Below, piece by piece: positions 1,859 to 8,323 of a stretch of 63,303 nt of DNA; within the stretch, counting starts at the first letter, position 1; every line of letters begins with the position of its first letter. The notes beneath the pieces were generated by a model, which had not been told where the DNA came from, did not search any database, and saw only the letters and a program-made list of their open reading frames with translations. The translations under genes were made by a program, and so were the position numbers. Source of the stretch: Eubacteriales bacterium (GTDB lineage Bacteria > Bacillota > Clostridia > Oscillospirales > CAG-272); NCBI GenBank assembly GCA_045533915.1, contig JAZSIP010000039.1, forward strand, positions 1-63,303, given 5' to 3'.

Positions 1859-2269
1859 TTAAGGGCATGTATTATAAAGTGTACGATTGATCACTTCTGC
1901 CACATTATTCTTGGTTACTGTAAATGTGTAATCCGCGCGATAATACACGCCGGATTCGGCATTGAAAGTACAGCTAACGCCAGATACCATTTTGTTTTTG
2001 GTATCGTGCAATTCCGTGACATAAATCCAATTTCCATTGATCTGTTTATATACATAAATATCTGTTGTTATCGAAGATGCACCGAACTGTGCCTTGGTGA
2101 CGGAATCAGCATACCCTACGCCATCATGAAAATTAAATGTACAGTCGATATTAGCTGTATTACTCCATAGTGGATGAACGGTGTTGTCTATGGTACTTGC
2201 ATAGACATTTACAGAAACTACAGATATCAGTAAAATCACAGACAGAATTGAAATTAGTGTTCGTTTCAT
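1859..2269 (-). CDS. Small secreted protein of unknown function
   Basis: It has an N-terminal signal peptide (MKRTLISILSVILLISVVSVNVYAS) and a strong RBS (GGGGGGAG). The mature part looks beta-rich, and I recognise no family. Confidence 0.6.
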   Translation of the reverse strand: MKRTLISILSVILLISVVSVNVYASTIDNTVHPLWSNTANIDCTFNFHDGVGYADSVTKAQFGASSITTDIYVYKQINGNWIYVTELHDTKNKMVSGVSCTFNAESGVYYRADYTFTVTKNNVAEVINRTLYNTCP

Positions 2270-2627
2270 TGGATCTCCCCCCCTTTCTATTTTTGGTTAC
2301 ATAATATATAAAAAAACAACGTTGAAAAAATTTGCTAAAAAAACAAAAAATATTTTTTAAGTAGTTCAAATTTTTTTGTGACTTGTTCGTTATATATTTA
2401 ATTATACTTTTTTACGGGGAATTTGCCGATGGTTGGTCGAAAAAAAACCAAATACATATTGTTCCCTTGGCTTTTAGCGCATAGAATTGATTTGTTTTTC
2501 CACTTATCAATTTTATGCGTTTTTTTTACGCCAATTTTGTCGGAAAAGTGGGAAACCTACGTAGCCAGATATCCATAATCCTTTCTTTTATATTTCTCAA
2601 CGAAATCAAAAAGAAAGGATTAACATT

Positions 2628-3182
2628 ATGAAAAGGATTTATTGGGTAAAAAAGAATCCCAACATTGATTCGAATAATAATTGGATCAAAATGAACAAAG
2701 CAGAGTTTACAAAATTTATCAAATCAGGTGTAGCTAAAGGAAGATACTTTGCACAGCTCGATGCCTGTGATGAAAACGATAGCATTCTTATTGTAGAATG
2801 TTCCCGAGAGCTAGCGGTACGGTGCAGAAAGGAGAAAGATTATCACGACAATCTCGAAAAGAATCGCGTTGCATCGCAGATCAAGACTTGTTCTTACAAT
2901 ATTGTTGTATTAGGAGAAGAATCAAAAAATGGAGAATCGCTATTGATTGACCATGAAAATGATGTGATTGCCATTTTTCTTGATCAGTGTGAAAAGGAAC
3001 AGTTACATAAGGCATTGCTACAATTGACACGGAGAGAGTATGAATTGATTGAGGCTTTATTCTTCTGCTATCCACGAAAAAGCGAAGCGGAAGTTGCCAG
3101 AGAGCGATGCGTGTCTCAGCAGGCAATCAGTAAGCAAAAAAGAATTATTTTTGAAAAAATAAAAAGTTTTTTCAAAAATTAG
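2628..3182 (+). CDS. Sigma-70 region-4-like HTH protein (Tn916 Orf7-like regulator)
   Basis: The C-terminus (LTRREYELIEALFFCYPRKSEAEVARERCVSQQAISKQKRIIFEKIK) looks like a sigma region-4 HTH. Its position upstream of the xis/int module matches Tn916-family elements. Confidence 0.55.
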   Translation: MKRIYWVKKNPNIDSNNNWIKMNKAEFTKFIKSGVAKGRYFAQLDACDENDSILIVECSRELAVRCRKEKDYHDNLEKNRVASQIKTCSYNIVVLGEESKNGESLLIDHENDVIAIFLDQCEKEQLHKALLQLTRREYELIEALFFCYPRKSEAEVARERCVSQQAISKQKRIIFEKIKSFFKN

Positions 3183-3199
3183 GTTGTGAAATCAAATTT

Positions 3200-3712
3200 T
3201 CGTTCCCAATTGTATATTGGGGGGATCAATAGTCCCCATCCTTGACAATTGAATATCGGGATGCCGAGGTTACTCCCAGTTTCGTCCGGAAGGACAAGCC
3301 GCCGGGCAAGAGCGCCAAGACCTCGATTTTTTCTCTTGGGAAGAGTCGAGCGAGCGATTCATCTTGTGTCGGACCGTACAGTACACAGCATTGTACGGCA
3401 GGCCATGACAGAGACTGTGGTGAATAATGATACTTCTGCGTTAGTCGCAGCTCGCCGGTGGGCGGGTTACGGCGTTTCGGGCTGGAACATGGATGTCCGT
3501 TTCGTTGTAAATGATCCTCAGTTGTCACAAAAGAAGTTGTGGCTTGTATGCTGCGAGGTACTCGGCATCTCCCCTGTAACACAGATCCTGTTTGTGTTAG
3601 GGTTCGCCGGGGACAGAGAAGAATACGGCGACCGTCAATTTATTCTAAATGATTTGGCGGCAGAACCACTGTGCAGAAGTCTTTGTATTTCTGCACACCA
3701 TTCTGCCGTCAA
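3200..3712 (+). ncRNA. Candidate large structured non-coding RNA, or a structured 5' leader of the helicase gene
   Basis: This is a 555-nt gap with no credible ORF. The only ORFs are overlapping Arg/Pro/Ser-rich artefacts on both strands. It is visibly richer in G+C than the flanks. It contains many local hairpins plus a long-range helix, 3260-3268 GATGCCGAG with 3561-3569 CTCGGCATC. There is a GNRA hairpin GTCC-GGAA-GGAC at 3284-3295 and a 17-bp bipartite hairpin at 3658-3708. Confidence 0.5.
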
Positions 3713-3738
3713 AGGACTTTAAAAACAAGGAGAACGAT

Positions 3739-6036
3739 ATGTTTGACTTTACGTTTCAAGATGCAGATCGACTGCAGGACTACGTCAGAAAAAAGAAAGC
3801 CGATCAAAATGCAATCTATGATTTCACCTTTGAAAACCGTTATCTAATTTACCACTATCCCATAAAGCACGAGTATCATTATACCGCCTTGGATATGCAG
3901 ACAGGATACGGTTCTCATATTGTTACAAAAAAGAAGAAGGGTGCGTACCGCTTGGAAACCTATCGGAATATGATTCCCAAGATATTGTATTCAATCAAAT
4001 ACACAAGCGATGGGCGTTATTTAAAGGATTTTAATTTTACCCCCGAAATGACGATTAATTTCATTTTTCGCACTGTTTTGCCTTATCACGGATATAAAGT
4101 GCGCGAGGAACAAATTAAGCTCTCATTGCATATGCTGGAGGGCTTCCGTAACAAATGGGTATCCATCAATGAAGCCGAGGTTGGTACCGGAAAATCCTTG
4201 GCGTATCTTATTGCTGCTTTCGTTGCTAAAACACAGTTCGCCAAAAGCATCACAAATCCATGTCCCGTAACGATTACCACCTCCAGTATTGAATTGCAAA
4301 ACGCATTGGTTGAAAAAGAAATTCCGAATCTATCGCGCATGCTGCAAGCCTTTGGCTTGATTGAACAGCCGCTGAAGGTGGTTCTGCGCAAAGGAAAAGA
4401 GCATTATTTATGTCCCATGCGGTACCAAGAATATTTGAAGCAGATCAGAATATATGAAAAGCACAGGGCGTTAGTGGATCGCTTGGAAAGGATGAAGCGC
4501 AAGGATAAAGCACTGACCGATCTTGACAAGCTGGATCTTCGTGTCTCGGTGAAAGATAAGATCTGCGTAAAAGGCAGTTGTAAGGATTGCAAACACGCAG
4601 AGCATTGCGGGTATGCAGAGTTCATCAGGCACGCGCAGAAGGACTTTGACATTGACTTTCAAGTCACAAACCATAATCTTTATCTTGCCCAAGTCAAGCT
4701 CTGTAATACTGCTAAAAGCGCACCTACGATTTTACAACCAAGTCATTATGTGATTATAGATGAGGCACACAAGCTCAAGCAGGCGGCTGAGGATACCTTT
4801 GGAGAAAGGTTCTCTGAAAAAGAGATTGCAAACTACATCAAAGCAGCATGGAATGCCTGTGCTGAACAATCGAATCTTACTCGTTATCGAGATGTATTGA
4901 ACGAACTGAAAGATACCAATAAAAAAGTCTTTTCCTATCTGCGCGAGCAAATGCACGAGGACGATTACGAAAACGAGGGACATACCATTATCACCGATCC
5001 TATCCATGTTCAAGTTATGCTGTATGACATGGTACATCAGATCGATGAGAGTGAATCATACAGAGCCAAGACGGATTCTGCATTTGACCGCAAGATCGCA
5101 ATGTTGGCTGATACCGTTTACAGCATTGCTGACAGTTATTCAAAGGAAACCAACTTTTGGGTTGAGGTGGATGAAAATGACGTTGCATCCTTTTGCTGTT
5201 CACCAATCCACATCAATGAAATCCTGTATGAAAAGCTTTGGAATCGAAAAAACAGCCATGTGCTGACTTCCGGAACAATGAGTGATGGAACAGACTTCGA
5301 TTTTTTTAAGTGTGAGAATGGCATTGACCGTGTCAATTCTTGCAAGGTGCAGGAAAGCTCCACGCCGTCGCCATTTGATTATCGGAATCACGCGCGGTTG
5401 TATATTCCCAAGGGGATGCCTCAACCCGACAATGAGGATGAAACATATCATCAGGCAGTTGCCGAACAGATTATTCAGATCGTGGATGCCACCAACGGAC
5501 ATACCGCCATTCTGTTTACATCCTATGCCGTTTTGCAAACGGTCTATGAGCTGATCAAAGACAAGCTGGATCGCTATGAGGTTATTTGTATGACGCGAAG
5601 CAACCGCACGGCAATCGCGGATTTTAAGAAATCGGTCAATGCTGTTTTGTTTGCATCCGGCTCCATGTGGGAAGGTGTAGACTGTGCGGGAGACTGTCTC
5701 TCGTCTGTGATCATTGTCAGGCTTCCGTTTCCTTTGCGAAGTGCCACAATGGAGCAGAAAAAGAGCAATTGCACTGATGTCGGCGAGTTTGTACAAAAAT
5801 ATGCCGTTCCAGAAATGATCATCAAGCTCCGACAAGGTGTGGGCAGGTTGATCCGAAACGAAACGGACACGGGTTTGATTGCAATTTTAGATGTTCGTGC
5901 GGACGAAGGAAAGCACGCTGTTCGGGTCAGAAAGGTGTTGAGGAAATATCCTCTTGTCAACTCACCTGAGGAAATACGAAAGTTTTTCCATACCGTGAAG
6001 TCTCCCGCCTATTTTGAGGGATCTGCTAAACAATGA
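3739..6036 (+). CDS. DinG/XPD (Rad3)-family Fe-S ATP-dependent DNA helicase with an uncharacterised ~150-aa N-terminal domain
   Basis: It has Walker A (AEVGTGKSLAYL), a DEAH box (VIIDEAHKL) and motif VI (QGVGRLIR). A Cys cluster (CPMRY...CVKGSCKDCKHAEHC) lies between motifs I and II, as in XPD/DinG Fe-S domains. The start was set to ATG 3739 after the RBS AAGGAGA. The ORF track starts at 3649, inside the structured region. Confidence 0.8.
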   Translation: MFDFTFQDADRLQDYVRKKKADQNAIYDFTFENRYLIYHYPIKHEYHYTALDMQTGYGSHIVTKKKKGAYRLETYRNMIPKILYSIKYTSDGRYLKDFNFTPEMTINFIFRTVLPYHGYKVREEQIKLSLHMLEGFRNKWVSINEAEVGTGKSLAYLIAAFVAKTQFAKSITNPCPVTITTSSIELQNALVEKEIPNLSRMLQAFGLIEQPLKVVLRKGKEHYLCPMRYQEYLKQIRIYEKHRALVDRLERMKRKDKALTDLDKLDLRVSVKDKICVKGSCKDCKHAEHCGYAEFIRHAQKDFDIDFQVTNHNLYLAQVKLCNTAKSAPTILQPSHYVIIDEAHKLKQAAEDTFGERFSEKEIANYIKAAWNACAEQSNLTRYRDVLNELKDTNKKVFSYLREQMHEDDYENEGHTIITDPIHVQVMLYDMVHQIDESESYRAKTDSAFDRKIAMLADTVYSIADSYSKETNFWVEVDENDVASFCCSPIHINEILYEKLWNRKNSHVLTSGTMSDGTDFDFFKCENGIDRVNSCKVQESSTPSPFDYRNHARLYIPKGMPQPDNEDETYHQAVAEQIIQIVDATNGHTAILFTSYAVLQTVYELIKDKLDRYEVICMTRSNRTAIADFKKSVNAVLFASGSMWEGVDCAGDCLSSVIIVRLPFPLRSATMEQKKSNCTDVGEFVQKYAVPEMIIKLRQGVGRLIRNETDTGLIAILDVRADEGKHAVRVRKVLRKYPLVNSPEEIRKFFHTVKSPAYFEGSAKQ

Positions 6037-6497
6037 GAAACTATCTTTTGATTAAAACATGGGCGCTTATCAGCACGATTTTATTTATAATTTCTCTTTT
6101 TTGCCTTGCGAGCGCAATACAAACGATAAACACCTTTGAGCATCCGGAACCGCAATACTATACAGAAACCGAGGACTGCGTGCTTGTCACGTTGTCCTCG
6201 GGGAAGTGCTTTACACTTGACTTTAGGAAAACGGCTGTTGAAGTAAAACGATGTGCTTCTGTGTCCCGTCATGATGCGCTGATGTTAATATCCTTCATCA
6301 AAGGATATGCCAAAAAGAACAGCATCCCAATTTCGCGTGCTACGGTCGAGTTGATCGGTGAATGTCGACTCCATACAATGCTTTCAAGCATTGGTTATAA
6401 AGCCGAGCAGACCGACAATGCTGATCTGGACTATACGCAAGATCGACGGTGGTATGTCAATTCGATAGCAAAAATGATTGGGGTTATGGGAATGTAA
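6033..6497 (+). CDS. Small membrane-anchored protein of unknown function, translationally coupled to the helicase
   Basis: Its start overlaps the helicase stop (ATGA). It has an N-terminal TM helix (TWALISTILFIISLFCLASAI). I recognise no family. Confidence 0.55.
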   Translation: MRNYLLIKTWALISTILFIISLFCLASAIQTINTFEHPEPQYYTETEDCVLVTLSSGKCFTLDFRKTAVEVKRCASVSRHDALMLISFIKGYAKKNSIPISRATVELIGECRLHTMLSSIGYKAEQTDNADLDYTQDRRWYVNSIAKMIGVMGM

Positions 6498-6597
6498 GAG
6501 GTCTTGCAAAATTGCAACTTAATTGATAATAAAACAAAATACGCTGGCTATTTTGCTTATTTTGTGATATAGTCAGTTGGGAAAGGAAGTAAGAAAA

Positions 6598-6780
6598 ATG
6601 TTTGAAGAATATCCCGACGTTGTGACCTTTGAAGATGTATGCAAAATGCTTTCCCTGAGTCGCAACACCGTCTATACACTTTTGAGAAAAAAGAAAATTA
6701 AAAACAAGAAAATTGGGCGTGTCTATCGGATACCCAAAAGGTATGTGATAGAATATATCAATGAGAATTGTGAGGCATAA
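6598..6780 (+). CDS. xis: Excisionase-family (MerR-like HTH) DNA-binding protein
   Basis: 60 aa, with VTFEDVCKMLSLSRNTVYTLLRKKKIKNKKIGRVYRIPKRYVIEYI, typical of excisionase-family HTH proteins. It lies immediately 5' of the integrase. ATG 6598 follows the RBS AAGGAAG. Confidence 0.75.
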   Translation: MFEEYPDVVTFEDVCKMLSLSRNTVYTLLRKKKIKNKKIGRVYRIPKRYVIEYINENCEA

Positions 6781-7965
6781 ATGACAGGATGTGTTTTTCA
6801 ACGCGGAGACATCTATTACATTCGATTAAAATATCAGGATTTTACAGGTAAGCTGAAGGAAAAATGGGTATCTACCGGACTGAGAGGGCGTGGAGCAAAA
6901 AGACAAGCGCAGCAGATGATCGATCAGATTATAAAAGATTATGCCTATTTGGAGAGAAACGAAGATAAGCGTTCAATGTTGTTTTCGGATTACATGAAAC
7001 ATTGGCAAATTCAGCAAAAGGATCATGTAGAGTTATCTACATACGAAGGGTACATCACGTACTTTGACCGTCATTTGATTCCGTATTTTGAAAAAAAGAA
7101 ATTGACTGTACAACAAATCAAACCATATGAGATTCAACAATTTATCGAATATAAGCTTCATGGCGGGCGTTGCGATAATAAGCCCGGCGGATTATCAAGA
7201 GACATGATAAGTAAGCTTGTCAGCTTGATTCGCCATGTGTTGGATTATGCAGTGATGGTGGGGGATATCGATGTAAACCCTGCGGTCAGAGTCCGCATTC
7301 CTCCAAATAAGGATAAAACCCCTGTAGAAGAAAAGATCGTATTTTTGAACCAAGAGGAAGCACAGAAGATGCTCAATGCATTTGCGGGTGATCCTCTCGA
7401 AGCGTTGGTATATGTCACGCTTTATTATGGATTGAGACGTTCTGAGGTGTTAGGCTTGAAGTGGGATGCCGTGGATTTTGACCGCAACACGATCAGTATC
7501 AGGCATGTTGTTGTGAAGAACCGTACTGTGGAAGCGAAGGATTCTACCAAATCCTATAGTAGCCGCAGAACCTTTGAAATACTGCCGGAGGTGAAGGATC
7601 TATTACTTAATCTGAAAGAAGAAGAAAAACTGAATCGTGCCTTTTACGGCAATTGCTATGTAGAAAATGATTATATTTTCAAGCATGAGGATGGAACCCC
7701 TTACCGTCCCGATTGTATTACAAGATCGTTTCAGCGTGTTCTTGCGCGTAATGGTTTGAAAAAGATGAGATTTCACGATATCCGGCATACCACGGCAAGC
7801 GTGTTATTTGATAAGGGCTGGGATATCAACGAGATCAAGGAGTGGCTGGGACATGCTGATATTGAAACCACAGCAAATATCTATACGCATATCAGCCATG
7901 CCAAAAGAGTATCCTTGGCAAAGAATATGGAAAATACGTTTACTATATCAGGACAGACAATGTAA
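6781..7965 (+). CDS. int: Tyrosine-type site-specific integrase
   Basis: The catalytic residues are recognisable: LRRSEVLGLKW (Arg), HDIRHTTAS (H-x-x-R) and LGHADIETTANIYTH (Tyr). It also has an N-terminal arm-binding-like domain (GDIYYIRLKY). Confidence 0.9.
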   Translation: MTGCVFQRGDIYYIRLKYQDFTGKLKEKWVSTGLRGRGAKRQAQQMIDQIIKDYAYLERNEDKRSMLFSDYMKHWQIQQKDHVELSTYEGYITYFDRHLIPYFEKKKLTVQQIKPYEIQQFIEYKLHGGRCDNKPGGLSRDMISKLVSLIRHVLDYAVMVGDIDVNPAVRVRIPPNKDKTPVEEKIVFLNQEEAQKMLNAFAGDPLEALVYVTLYYGLRRSEVLGLKWDAVDFDRNTISIRHVVVKNRTVEAKDSTKSYSSRRTFEILPEVKDLLLNLKEEEKLNRAFYGNCYVENDYIFKHEDGTPYRPDCITRSFQRVLARNGLKKMRFHDIRHTTASVLFDKGWDINEIKEWLGHADIETTANIYTHISHAKRVSLAKNMENTFTISGQTM

Positions 7966-8220: not shown

Positions 8221-8247
8221 AAACGGAGATTCCGAAGAATCTCCGTT
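8221..8247 (-). terminator. Intrinsic terminator following tRNA-Pro
   Basis: The stem AAACGGAGATTC/GAATCTCCGTTT lies directly after the CCA end. On the minus strand it is followed by a T-rich run. Confidence 0.7.
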
Positions 8248-8323
8248 TGGTCTGAGTGACAAGACTTGAACTTGCGGCCTCTACCACCCCAAGGTAGCGC
8301 GCTCCCAACTGCGCCACACCCAG
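8248..8323 (-). tRNA. tRNA-Pro (anticodon GGG) with encoded CCA
   Basis: I folded the cloverleaf by hand. The acceptor stem is CTGGGTG/CACTCAG and the D arm is GCGC-AGTTGGGA-GCGC. The anticodon stem is CTACC/GGTAG with loop TTGGGGT (GGG, G37). The T arm is GCAAG-TTCAAGT-CTTGT, followed by discriminator A and CCA. Confidence 0.85.

Follow-up and report, generated by a model that had tools for sequence, protein, structure and literature searches.

A large folded RNA in a Eubacteriales mobile element, a probable canT-class processive antiterminator of the Rfam dinG subtype

The locus and its non-coding gap

The window described here, that is, the whole stretch of DNA analysed (63,303 nucleotides (nt) of a Eubacteriales bacterium of the CAG-272 lineage; contig JAZSIP010000039.1 of assembly GCA_045533915.1), carries a mobile element in which a gap of 556 nt separates the stop codon (3180-3182) of a sigma-70 region-4-type helix-turn-helix (r4-HTH) gene from the ATG (3739) of a gene for a DinG/YoaA-family helicase. 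The gap holds a real, large and folded non-coding RNA (3200-3713, forward strand), which is the subject of this report. The r4-HTH gene (2628-3182, forward strand), the positional counterpart of Tn916 orf7/orf8, is recognized through weak NCBIfam sigma-70 matches over residues 107-180, and the helicase (3739-6036, forward strand; ribosome-binding site (RBS) AAGGAGA at 3727-3733) through Pfam Helicase_C_2 and DinG/YoaA NCBIfam matches. The helicase gene is followed by a hypothetical gene, an excisionase-type HTH_17 gene (xis, 6577-6780) and a tyrosine integrase gene (int, 6781-7965), the latter two assigned by domain matches and both on the forward strand. Directly after the integrase lies tRNA-Pro(GGG) (8248-8323, reverse strand; Rfam tRNA match), which is probably the attachment site and the right end of the element. 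A strong terminator-like hairpin (8221-8248) stands beside this tRNA, and the left boundary of the element lies outside the window.

The initial annotation of the DNA, made from the sequence alone, had judged the gap to be devoid of a credible open reading frame (ORF), a view that is upheld here. Both candidate ORFs, 3249-3722 on the forward strand and 3226-3582 on the reverse strand, are present and overlap the gap, and a Pfam search with the two returned no match. Related loci were obtained by collecting homologues of the helicase, aligning them (alignment A1) and scanning genomes with the alignment, which yielded 79 loci, mostly from metagenome-assembled genomes of Clostridia, together with isolates of Clostridium, Hathewaya and Desnuesiella; a genome scan with the single helicase protein as query gave no match. 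In tblastn comparisons with these loci all six frames of the gap scored equally (1087-1370 summed bits per frame), showing that conservation is at the nucleotide level and that no frame is conserved. The proposal that the gap is a protein-coding gene or a decayed pseudogene, represented by one of the two ORFs, draws on the length of these ORFs, which span the conserved block, and on the ORFs that gene callers annotate over homologues (Tn916 orf5, and the 5′ end of a 329-amino-acid gene in locus L200, described below). It is nevertheless extremely improbable in view of the Pfam and tblastn results, of substitutions that track base-pair covariation, and of the published finding that mutations in the start and stop codons of the non-functional Tn916 orf5, which overlaps the homologous canT on the opposite strand, have no phenotype (PMC11658703). 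ORFs called over RNAs of this type (window 3226-3582, reverse strand; L204, the Tn916 copy, 2766-3017, reverse strand; L200 8178-8225) are probably artefacts: in loci L200-L203 gene callers place the start of the 329-amino-acid gene inside the RNA, and the reverse-strand window ORF parallels orf5, which experiment found to be without protein function.

The gap is also richer in G+C than its surroundings, as had been noted initially, with a fraction of 0.45-0.52 compared with 0.28-0.40 upstream and about 0.38-0.42 immediately downstream. The RNA of the gap has a predicted folding energy of -209 kcal/mol (z = -5.7) on the forward strand and -174 kcal/mol (z = -3.9) on the reverse strand. Neither PLSDB plasmids nor INPHARED phages gave a blastn match to the 556 nt.

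Conserved structure of the RNA

Searches with blastn and iterated nhmmer showed that 3204-3735 is conserved in its entirety, immediately upstream of the helicase gene, in about 54 of the 79 loci. Two alignments were used in the structural analysis: A2, a MAFFT alignment of 28 non-redundant copies, and A3, a superfamily alignment that includes Tn916. The RNAalifold consensus on A2 displayed compensatory changes in 60 of 71 pairs and was extended, by column-pair search and inspection, to a model of 92 pairs. In this model 91.9% of the A2 cells are paired, compared with 36-44% when the partners are slid by 1-3 columns; 79 pairs changed on both sides, compared with 35-43 in the slid controls; and the covariation score is 0.534, compared with about 0.11. 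None of 500 shuffles reached these values. The comparison of regions upstream of helicase homologues, which the initial annotation had put forward as a check on its proposed RNA, thus provides extensive compensatory change in favour of the fold.

The strand on which the structure forms is indicated by its wobble pairs. A2 contains 225 G.U cells and 44 A.C cells, an excess that assigns the structure to the forward strand, in agreement with the initial proposal. This excess, together with the GNRA loops of hairpin P3 (see below), also suggests that the structure is RNA. As covariation alone cannot separate RNA from single-stranded DNA (ssDNA), the gap could in principle function as ssDNA of the mobile element, for example as a single-strand origin, as an ssDNA promoter or as a recombination site, and the element probably replicates or transfers as ssDNA. 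A TTGACA block resembling a -35 hexamer points in the same direction. Sequence inspection, however, found no -10 element 16-18 nt after this block, and its assignment as a -35 box was rejected. The GNRA tetraloops and the 5:1 excess of G.U over A.C fit RNA, the Tn916 homologue is orientation-specific in a chromosomal transcription reporter, and the published Tn916 map draws oriT and sso apart from canT (PMC11658703). An ssDNA function is therefore highly improbable.

The model, all of which refers to the forward strand, comprises a large 5′ domain closed by a long-range helix, a variable linker and a 3′ hairpin. The 5′ end displays two small hairpins (P0, 3205-3238), identified from the sequence, the minimum free energy (MFE) fold and, by eye, a compensating 3′ arm. 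The second hairpin (3222-3238) is of a conserved GUGAGGGG type, while the first (3205-3221) is specific to the window. P0 is unconfirmed by the fixed-register count, A2 being gappy in this region; Tn916 has GGCU/AGCC at the corresponding position. A nearly invariant single-stranded block, CCUUGACAAUUGAAUA (3240-3255), whose columns are invariant in A2 and A3, Tn916 included, is followed by P1 (3258-3268/3561-3571). This is the long-range helix, enclosing about 290 nt, that had been predicted from the single sequence, and it displays compensatory changes in 10 of its 11 pairs. P1 is formed by unrelated sequences in every subfamily, including Tn916, and is also present in the MFE fold of Tn916.

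Within P1, the helix P2 (3277-3283/3411-3417) shows changes on both sides in 7 of 7 pairs and adjoins P3 (3284-3295), the GUCC-GGAA-GGAC hairpin, in which 3 of 3 pairs covary. The GNRA character of this hairpin, recognized from the outset, extends to most of the 28 homologues (loops GAAA, GGAA, GUGA, GUAA, GAGA and GCAA). P4 (3307-3366) is a three-part stem supported by covariation (3307-3311/3362-3366, 3313-3315/3354-3356 and 3322-3326/3346-3350) that contains two strands invariant in A2 and A3, GCGCCAAGAC (3312-3321) and GAGCGA (3352-3357); the CGCCAnGAC and GAGCGA blocks are invariant across the superfamily, including Tn916 canT. The nested stem initially placed at 3322-3350 is sustained by covariation in its outer CTCGA/TCGAG part, while its inner CTCTT/AAGAG part is lineage-specific or lies in a variable stretch. 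P5 (3374-3398; CCGUACAG/UUGUACGG, paired 3374-3381/3391-3398), another of the hairpins seen in the single sequence, has compensatory changes in 8 of 8 pairs. It is followed by the conserved GGCCAUGACA (3401-3410), located in A2 just 5′ of the 3′ strand of P2. The sequence GCCAnGAC is thus found twice, in GCGCCAAGAC and in GGCCAUGACA, each copy highly conserved and just 5′ of a helix strand; these repeats may be tertiary or protein-contact motifs.

The core of the domain is AUAAUGAUACUUC (3424-3436), which is invariant in A2 and A3 and leads into three hairpins supported by covariation: P6 (3436-3440/3446-3450), at the position given initially, P7 (3451-3455/3462-3466) and P8 (3467-3471/3506-3510, 3473-3475/3502-3504 and 3479-3482/3495-3498). 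The CGCCG/CGGCG pairing previously proposed at 3453-3474 is in the wrong register, as covariation favours P7 and a separate hairpin, P8, at 3467-3510. P9 (3517-3521/3554-3557; 3 of 4 pairs covary) surrounds a variable hairpin that is visible and poorly aligned. Beyond P1 lies a linker (3573-3652) that varies in length and sequence among the homologues. Its local hairpins, both of which had been listed as part of the fold, fared less well: the TAACACA/TGTGTTA hairpin at 3577-3599 is lineage-specific or in a variable stretch, and the CGCCG/CGGCG helix at 3604-3630 shows no in-register covariation in the MAFFT alignment, which is gappy in this variable linker.

The 3′ end of the RNA is formed by P12, a bipartite hairpin (3653-3665/3701-3713 and 3670-3680/3687-3697) whose internal loop, ACCACU/CACC, is conserved. 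Compensatory changes occur in 19 of 24 pairs and 96-97% of cells are paired, which bears out, as 3653-3713, the hairpin first drawn at 3658-3708. The initial annotation had also suggested that the 5′ arm of this hairpin (3673-3680) could pair instead with 3432-3439. This alternative is not supported: in all six sequences with C at 3437 the compensating change is in the local partner, and the distant partner in 3673-3680 stays A. A second candidate switch, pairing the core (3434-3439) with another part of the P12 arm (3660-3665), was rejected, as it is not compensated in A2.

Related RNAs and their gene neighbourhood

When the whole window was scanned against Rfam 15 at the gathering threshold, two matches were obtained, one to tRNA and the other to dinG RNA (RF03082) at 3426-3510 on the forward strand. 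The latter scores 61.1 bits, compared with a gathering score of 46.9, covers model positions 1-87 of 87 and includes P6, P7 and P8. The match lies upstream of a DinG-family helicase gene (3739-6036), and the same is true of L200. The Rfam model consists of three hairpins only, about one sixth of the structure described here; the conserved unit (about 3205-3713) is about six times the size of the motif. The motif reportedly goes back to Weinberg et al. (2017), a paper whose main text does not discuss dinG. Rfam types dinG RNA as 'Gene; sRNA' and assigns it no function, while the window RNA is probably cis-acting. A permissive scan of 3100-3800 also revealed a sub-threshold match to pemK RNA (RF02913) at 3424-3492 (25.0 bits, gathering score 34.8), which shares the 5′ sequence AUAAUGAUACUUC with the dinG match. 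The pemK model has this core and the following hairpins in common with the window RNA, and its matches, among them the one within Tn916 canT, are part of the same large architecture. With a window score below the gathering threshold, pemK RNA is a related sister subtype of the window RNA. The RNA is hence not an undescribed one, as had been supposed, and its likeness to the ornate RNAs ROOL and GOLLD was not sustained: neither these nor OLE, raiA, group I/II introns, RNase P or tmRNA were matched in the whole window at the gathering threshold or in 3100-3800 at E <= 10.

The connection to Tn916 provides a functional context. canT comprises 452 nt between orf8 and xis of Tn916 and is required for expression of the conjugation genes (Wirachman & Grossman, PLoS Genet 2024, PMC11658703). 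It mediates processive read-through of both Tn916 and heterologous terminators, acts in one orientation only and in cis only, without complementation in trans, and needs no other Tn916 gene (PMC11658703). The authors reported that single-sequence folding failed to explain their mutants, and made no further sequence or structure analysis (PMC11658703). The Tn916 copy compared here (L204) is from pCF10, with the orf8-xis gap at L204 2541-3000. Rfam pemK matches its canT region at 55 bits, and an nhmmer profile built exclusively from helicase-linked loci matches L204 2646-2837 with E = 5e-14. The conserved blocks of canT are in the same order as in the window: UUGAAAACUGAAUA, the P1 strand, CGCCAUGAC, GAGCGA and AUAAUGAUAC. 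P1 of Tn916 (AGUAAUCGAAUA/UGUUCGAUUGCU) was recovered by complement search and by MFE folding, while the internal helices P2, P4 and P5 were read by eye only. The published mutants fall within this framework. The inactivating canT(S3) substitution (ATA to TGC), which starts 283 nt after the orf8 stop codon and so occupies L204 2823-2825, replaces the first three bases of the invariant AUAAUGAUAC core, whose counterpart in the window is AUA 3424-3426; the canT(delta162) deletion spans the end of P4 through part of P9. Judged from sequence and gene order, the window RNA is homologous to, and syntenic with, Tn916 canT.

The distribution of the family was explored in viral contigs. An earlier 14-base pattern, ATAATGATACTTCNG, gave mostly chance matches (about 17 of 120 were real) and was replaced by a composite 24-base pattern, CGCCANGAC..GAGCGA..ATAATGATAC, which identified at least 120 loci. 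Viral-contig loci found through the core sequence display the same ordered blocks and long-range helix, precede PemK, primase, or small-protein and serine-recombinase genes, and are assigned by Rfam to pemK RNA. The downstream class, defined as the first recognizable gene within 4 kb, was scored for 120 loci among the matches listed, to which the counts in this and the following paragraphs refer. The next gene is a small protein and/or serine recombinase in 71, a Tn916-type xis in 15 (followed by int in 14), HTH_17 xis-int or an integrase alone in 6, PemK in 12 and the helicase in 6, while 7 loci were too short to score and 3 had no downstream match. A recombination-module gene is thus first downstream in 92 of the 120 listed loci, and most of the PemK and helicase loci then have a recombinase where sequence is available. 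Upstream, the gene is r4-HTH-like in 53 and orf8-like in 35 (88 of 120), and homologues of the r4-HTH gene of the window precede the RNA in many loci. In this family, to whose layout the window conforms, the RNA thus sits between a sigma-r4-type regulator and a recombination module at the end of integrative elements, with an optional cargo slot behind it. The name 'pemK' is misleading, given that pemK is next in only 12 of these 120 family members. Some family members precede ParB-like/DUF6551 genes; in some, such as locus L112 (reverse strand, 2041-4804, read in RNA orientation), PemK directly follows the RNA with no antitoxin gene between, and ParB-like and DUF6551-like genes come next.

These data bear on two explanations that tie the RNA to the helicase. 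The first regards it as a cis-regulatory leader dedicated to the DinG-like helicase and controlling its expression, whether as a riboswitch, an attenuator or an autoregulatory leader bound by protein. Such a leader would accord with the location of the RNA directly upstream of the helicase RBS, at a fixed distance in about 54 of the 79 helicase loci, with its aptamer-like, P1-closed multi-helix domain with invariant junction nucleotides, and with a motif that Rfam named after the helicase gene. However, no helix is followed by a U-tract terminator, nothing after the RNA would sequester the RBS, compensation is lacking for the candidate alternative pairings, and the same family precedes unrelated genes, the helicase being next in 6 of the 120 listed loci. 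In L200-L203, moreover, the RNA lies after a GerE/r4-type HTH gene, and two genes, the 329-amino-acid gene and DUF6551, separate it from the helicase. In addition, the Tn916 homologue is active in the absence of a helicase and when combined with heterologous promoters and terminators (PMC11658703). A helicase-specific leader is thus unlikely, and the elaborate regulatory leader envisaged initially survives only in that the RNA probably acts in cis.

In the second explanation the RNA is a stand-alone, trans-acting guide or scaffold in a ribonucleoprotein with the helicase. HEARO/omega-RNA beside IscB sets a precedent for such an arrangement, and the large size and ornate structure of the RNA, the conserved internal loop of P12 as a possible protein-binding site, and the 'Gene; sRNA' type of dinG in Rfam are all compatible with it. 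This explanation is very unlikely, as the RNA has no variable, guide-like stretch for which targets match, a terminator is absent from its 3′ end, most of the family is without a helicase, and Tn916 canT fails to complement in trans (PMC11658703). The small share of listed loci with the helicase as next gene shows that the RNA is not a helicase partner, and, with the two genes that intervene in L200-L203, speaks against the earlier suggestion of an RNA working with the helicase.

P12 is a separate module that differs from the core in its distribution. An nhmmer profile of P12 was too insensitive (4 of 120 found), and a descriptor search was used, which detected a P12-type hairpin (GAAnACUAUG ... 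UAUCnUUUUG) in 58 of the 120 listed loci and in 0 of 120 shuffles. Of the 49 listed loci that have a single r4-HTH gene upstream, 47 have the hairpin, and none of the 32 loci of the Tn916 orf8 type does; this co-occurrence could reflect either lineage or a protein partner.

Other genes in these elements are as follows. The r4-HTH protein shows weak pairwise similarity to region 4 of Tn916 Orf7 (E = 0.022). Further upstream, the window encodes another regulatory module: a Cro/C1-type HTH protein (90-479), an extracytoplasmic function-like sigma factor with a Sigma70_r4_2 domain (493-1071), and a possible anti-sigma factor, a DUF4367 protein (1068-1766). At its N terminus the helicase is extended by about 110 conserved residues (residues 1-112, window 3739-4075), among them invariant Y27, F29, T30 and F31; this extension lies outside the DinG/YoaA profiles and matched no Pfam family. 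A role for the helicase in a defence system was considered and rejected: PADLOC reported only generic CasDinG-family similarity, and there are no conserved partner genes. L200 (5391-14937; also L201-L203) is a compact integrative element of about 9 kb with no obvious conjugation genes. It carries genes for an ImmA-like M78 peptidase, an HTH_3 repressor and the GerE/r4 HTH protein, with perfect divergent promoters at 6403-6490; after the RNA come those for the 329-amino-acid protein, DUF6551, the helicase, a RelB/ParE pair and an integrase.

Proposed function and comparison with known antitermination RNAs

By analogy with Tn916, the RNA at 3200-3713 is probably a processive antiterminator that belongs to the canT class and, within it, to the Rfam dinG subtype. 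It is probably part of the same transcript as the r4-HTH gene, from an operon that starts at or before that gene. The nascent transcript would fold into a domain of about 315 nt, closed by P1 and displaying the invariant single-stranded and internal-loop blocks, and into a second part, the 3′ bipartite hairpin P12. As in Tn916 canT, the RNA would then act in cis, on the same RNA polymerase by which it was transcribed, rendering the elongation complex resistant to intrinsic terminators, such that transcription would continue through the helicase gene, xis and int and, after excision, would pass over the joint of the circle into the remainder of the element. Antitermination activity, processivity and direct contact with RNA polymerase are, for the window RNA, inferred from this analogy.

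Several observations weigh against this proposal. A simple scan detected no forward-strand intrinsic terminator between 3713 and 8250, the left end of the element, where the terminators of Tn916 are located, being outside the window, and a terminator scan of L200 gave nothing decisive. Antitermination has been assayed in the Tn916 member only (PMC11658703), to which overall identity is low: nhmmer aligns just the 5′ half, the 3′ half of canT was matched only through the blocks and the P1 search, and Tn916 has neither P3 nor the P12 domain. Members of the family are also found in small elements in which no conjugation genes are visible (L200-L203), where the role of the RNA may differ from that of canT. 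An elaboration of the antiterminator model is a two-component system resembling conAn, in which the r4-HTH protein would bind the P12 internal loop and travel with RNA polymerase as a processivity factor, while the helicase, instead of being chance cargo, would deal with R-loops or transcription-replication conflicts arising from terminator-resistant transcription of the replicating circle. It is hinted at because P12 tracks the single r4-HTH type, an association that may simply reflect lineage, and we regard this version as improbable.

Taken alone, the locus adds an ordinary member to a motif family already catalogued; its significance lies in tying the orphan Rfam motifs dinG and pemK to the one experimentally characterized RNA of the type, Tn916 canT. 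The literature searched contained no functional paper on either motif and none linking the two to canT, nor was the comparative structure found there. The covariation-supported model offers parts that can be tested, namely the P1-closed core, the invariant blocks including the S3 site, and the optional P12. The number of matches in one viral-contig scan (at least 120) suggests that integrative elements of gut Firmicutes commonly employ processive antitermination mediated by RNA. If the canT-class assignment is correct, the genes that gave the motifs their names, helicase and pemK, are interchangeable cargo in a slot downstream of the antiterminator.

Other RNAs are known to exert comparable effects. 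RNA-only, cis-acting processive antiterminators include the put RNA of phage HK022 and the EAR RNA of the Bacillus eps operon. These measure about 70 nt and 120 nt, respectively, are unrelated to the window RNA in sequence and structure, and gave no Rfam match in 3100-3800 at E <= 10. Both are thought to modify the elongating RNA polymerase (PMC11658703, PMC8191782), and both are much smaller than conAn2 (PMC8191782), the cis-acting antitermination RNA of 260-600 nt from pLS20-type conjugative plasmids (Miguel-Arribas et al. 2021, PMC8191782). In conAn2 a 20-bp inverted repeat closes the central region, and the gene just upstream encodes a small protein (PMC8191782), so that conAn2 resembles the window RNA as a large cis-acting RNA of Gram-positive conjugative elements with a long closing repeat and an upstream protein gene. 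No sequence relationship was detected, however, by profile match or by core block in pCF10 1-38600, which includes the conjugation region of pCF10 with its conAn system, and conAn2 requires ConAn1 for long-range action, whereas canT is active alone in reporters.

Tn916 canT is among the closest known systems. It and the window RNA share orientation and position, each following a regulatory gene of the sigma-r4 type and preceding xis-int at the element's end, and are of similar length (452 nt for canT, about 510 nt for the window RNA). Each is overlapped by a spurious opposite-strand ORF (orf5 in Tn916, 3226-3582 in the window), and they have in common the ordered invariant blocks, the long-range closing helix and the S3 site within the AUAAUGAUAC core. 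Beyond canT, the window RNA has the GNRA hairpin P3, a longer P8/P9 region, the variable linker and P12, while in canT P6 holds a large insertion and there is a small terminal hairpin instead. Unlike Tn916, the window also carries cargo genes, for the helicase and the hypothetical protein, between the RNA and xis.

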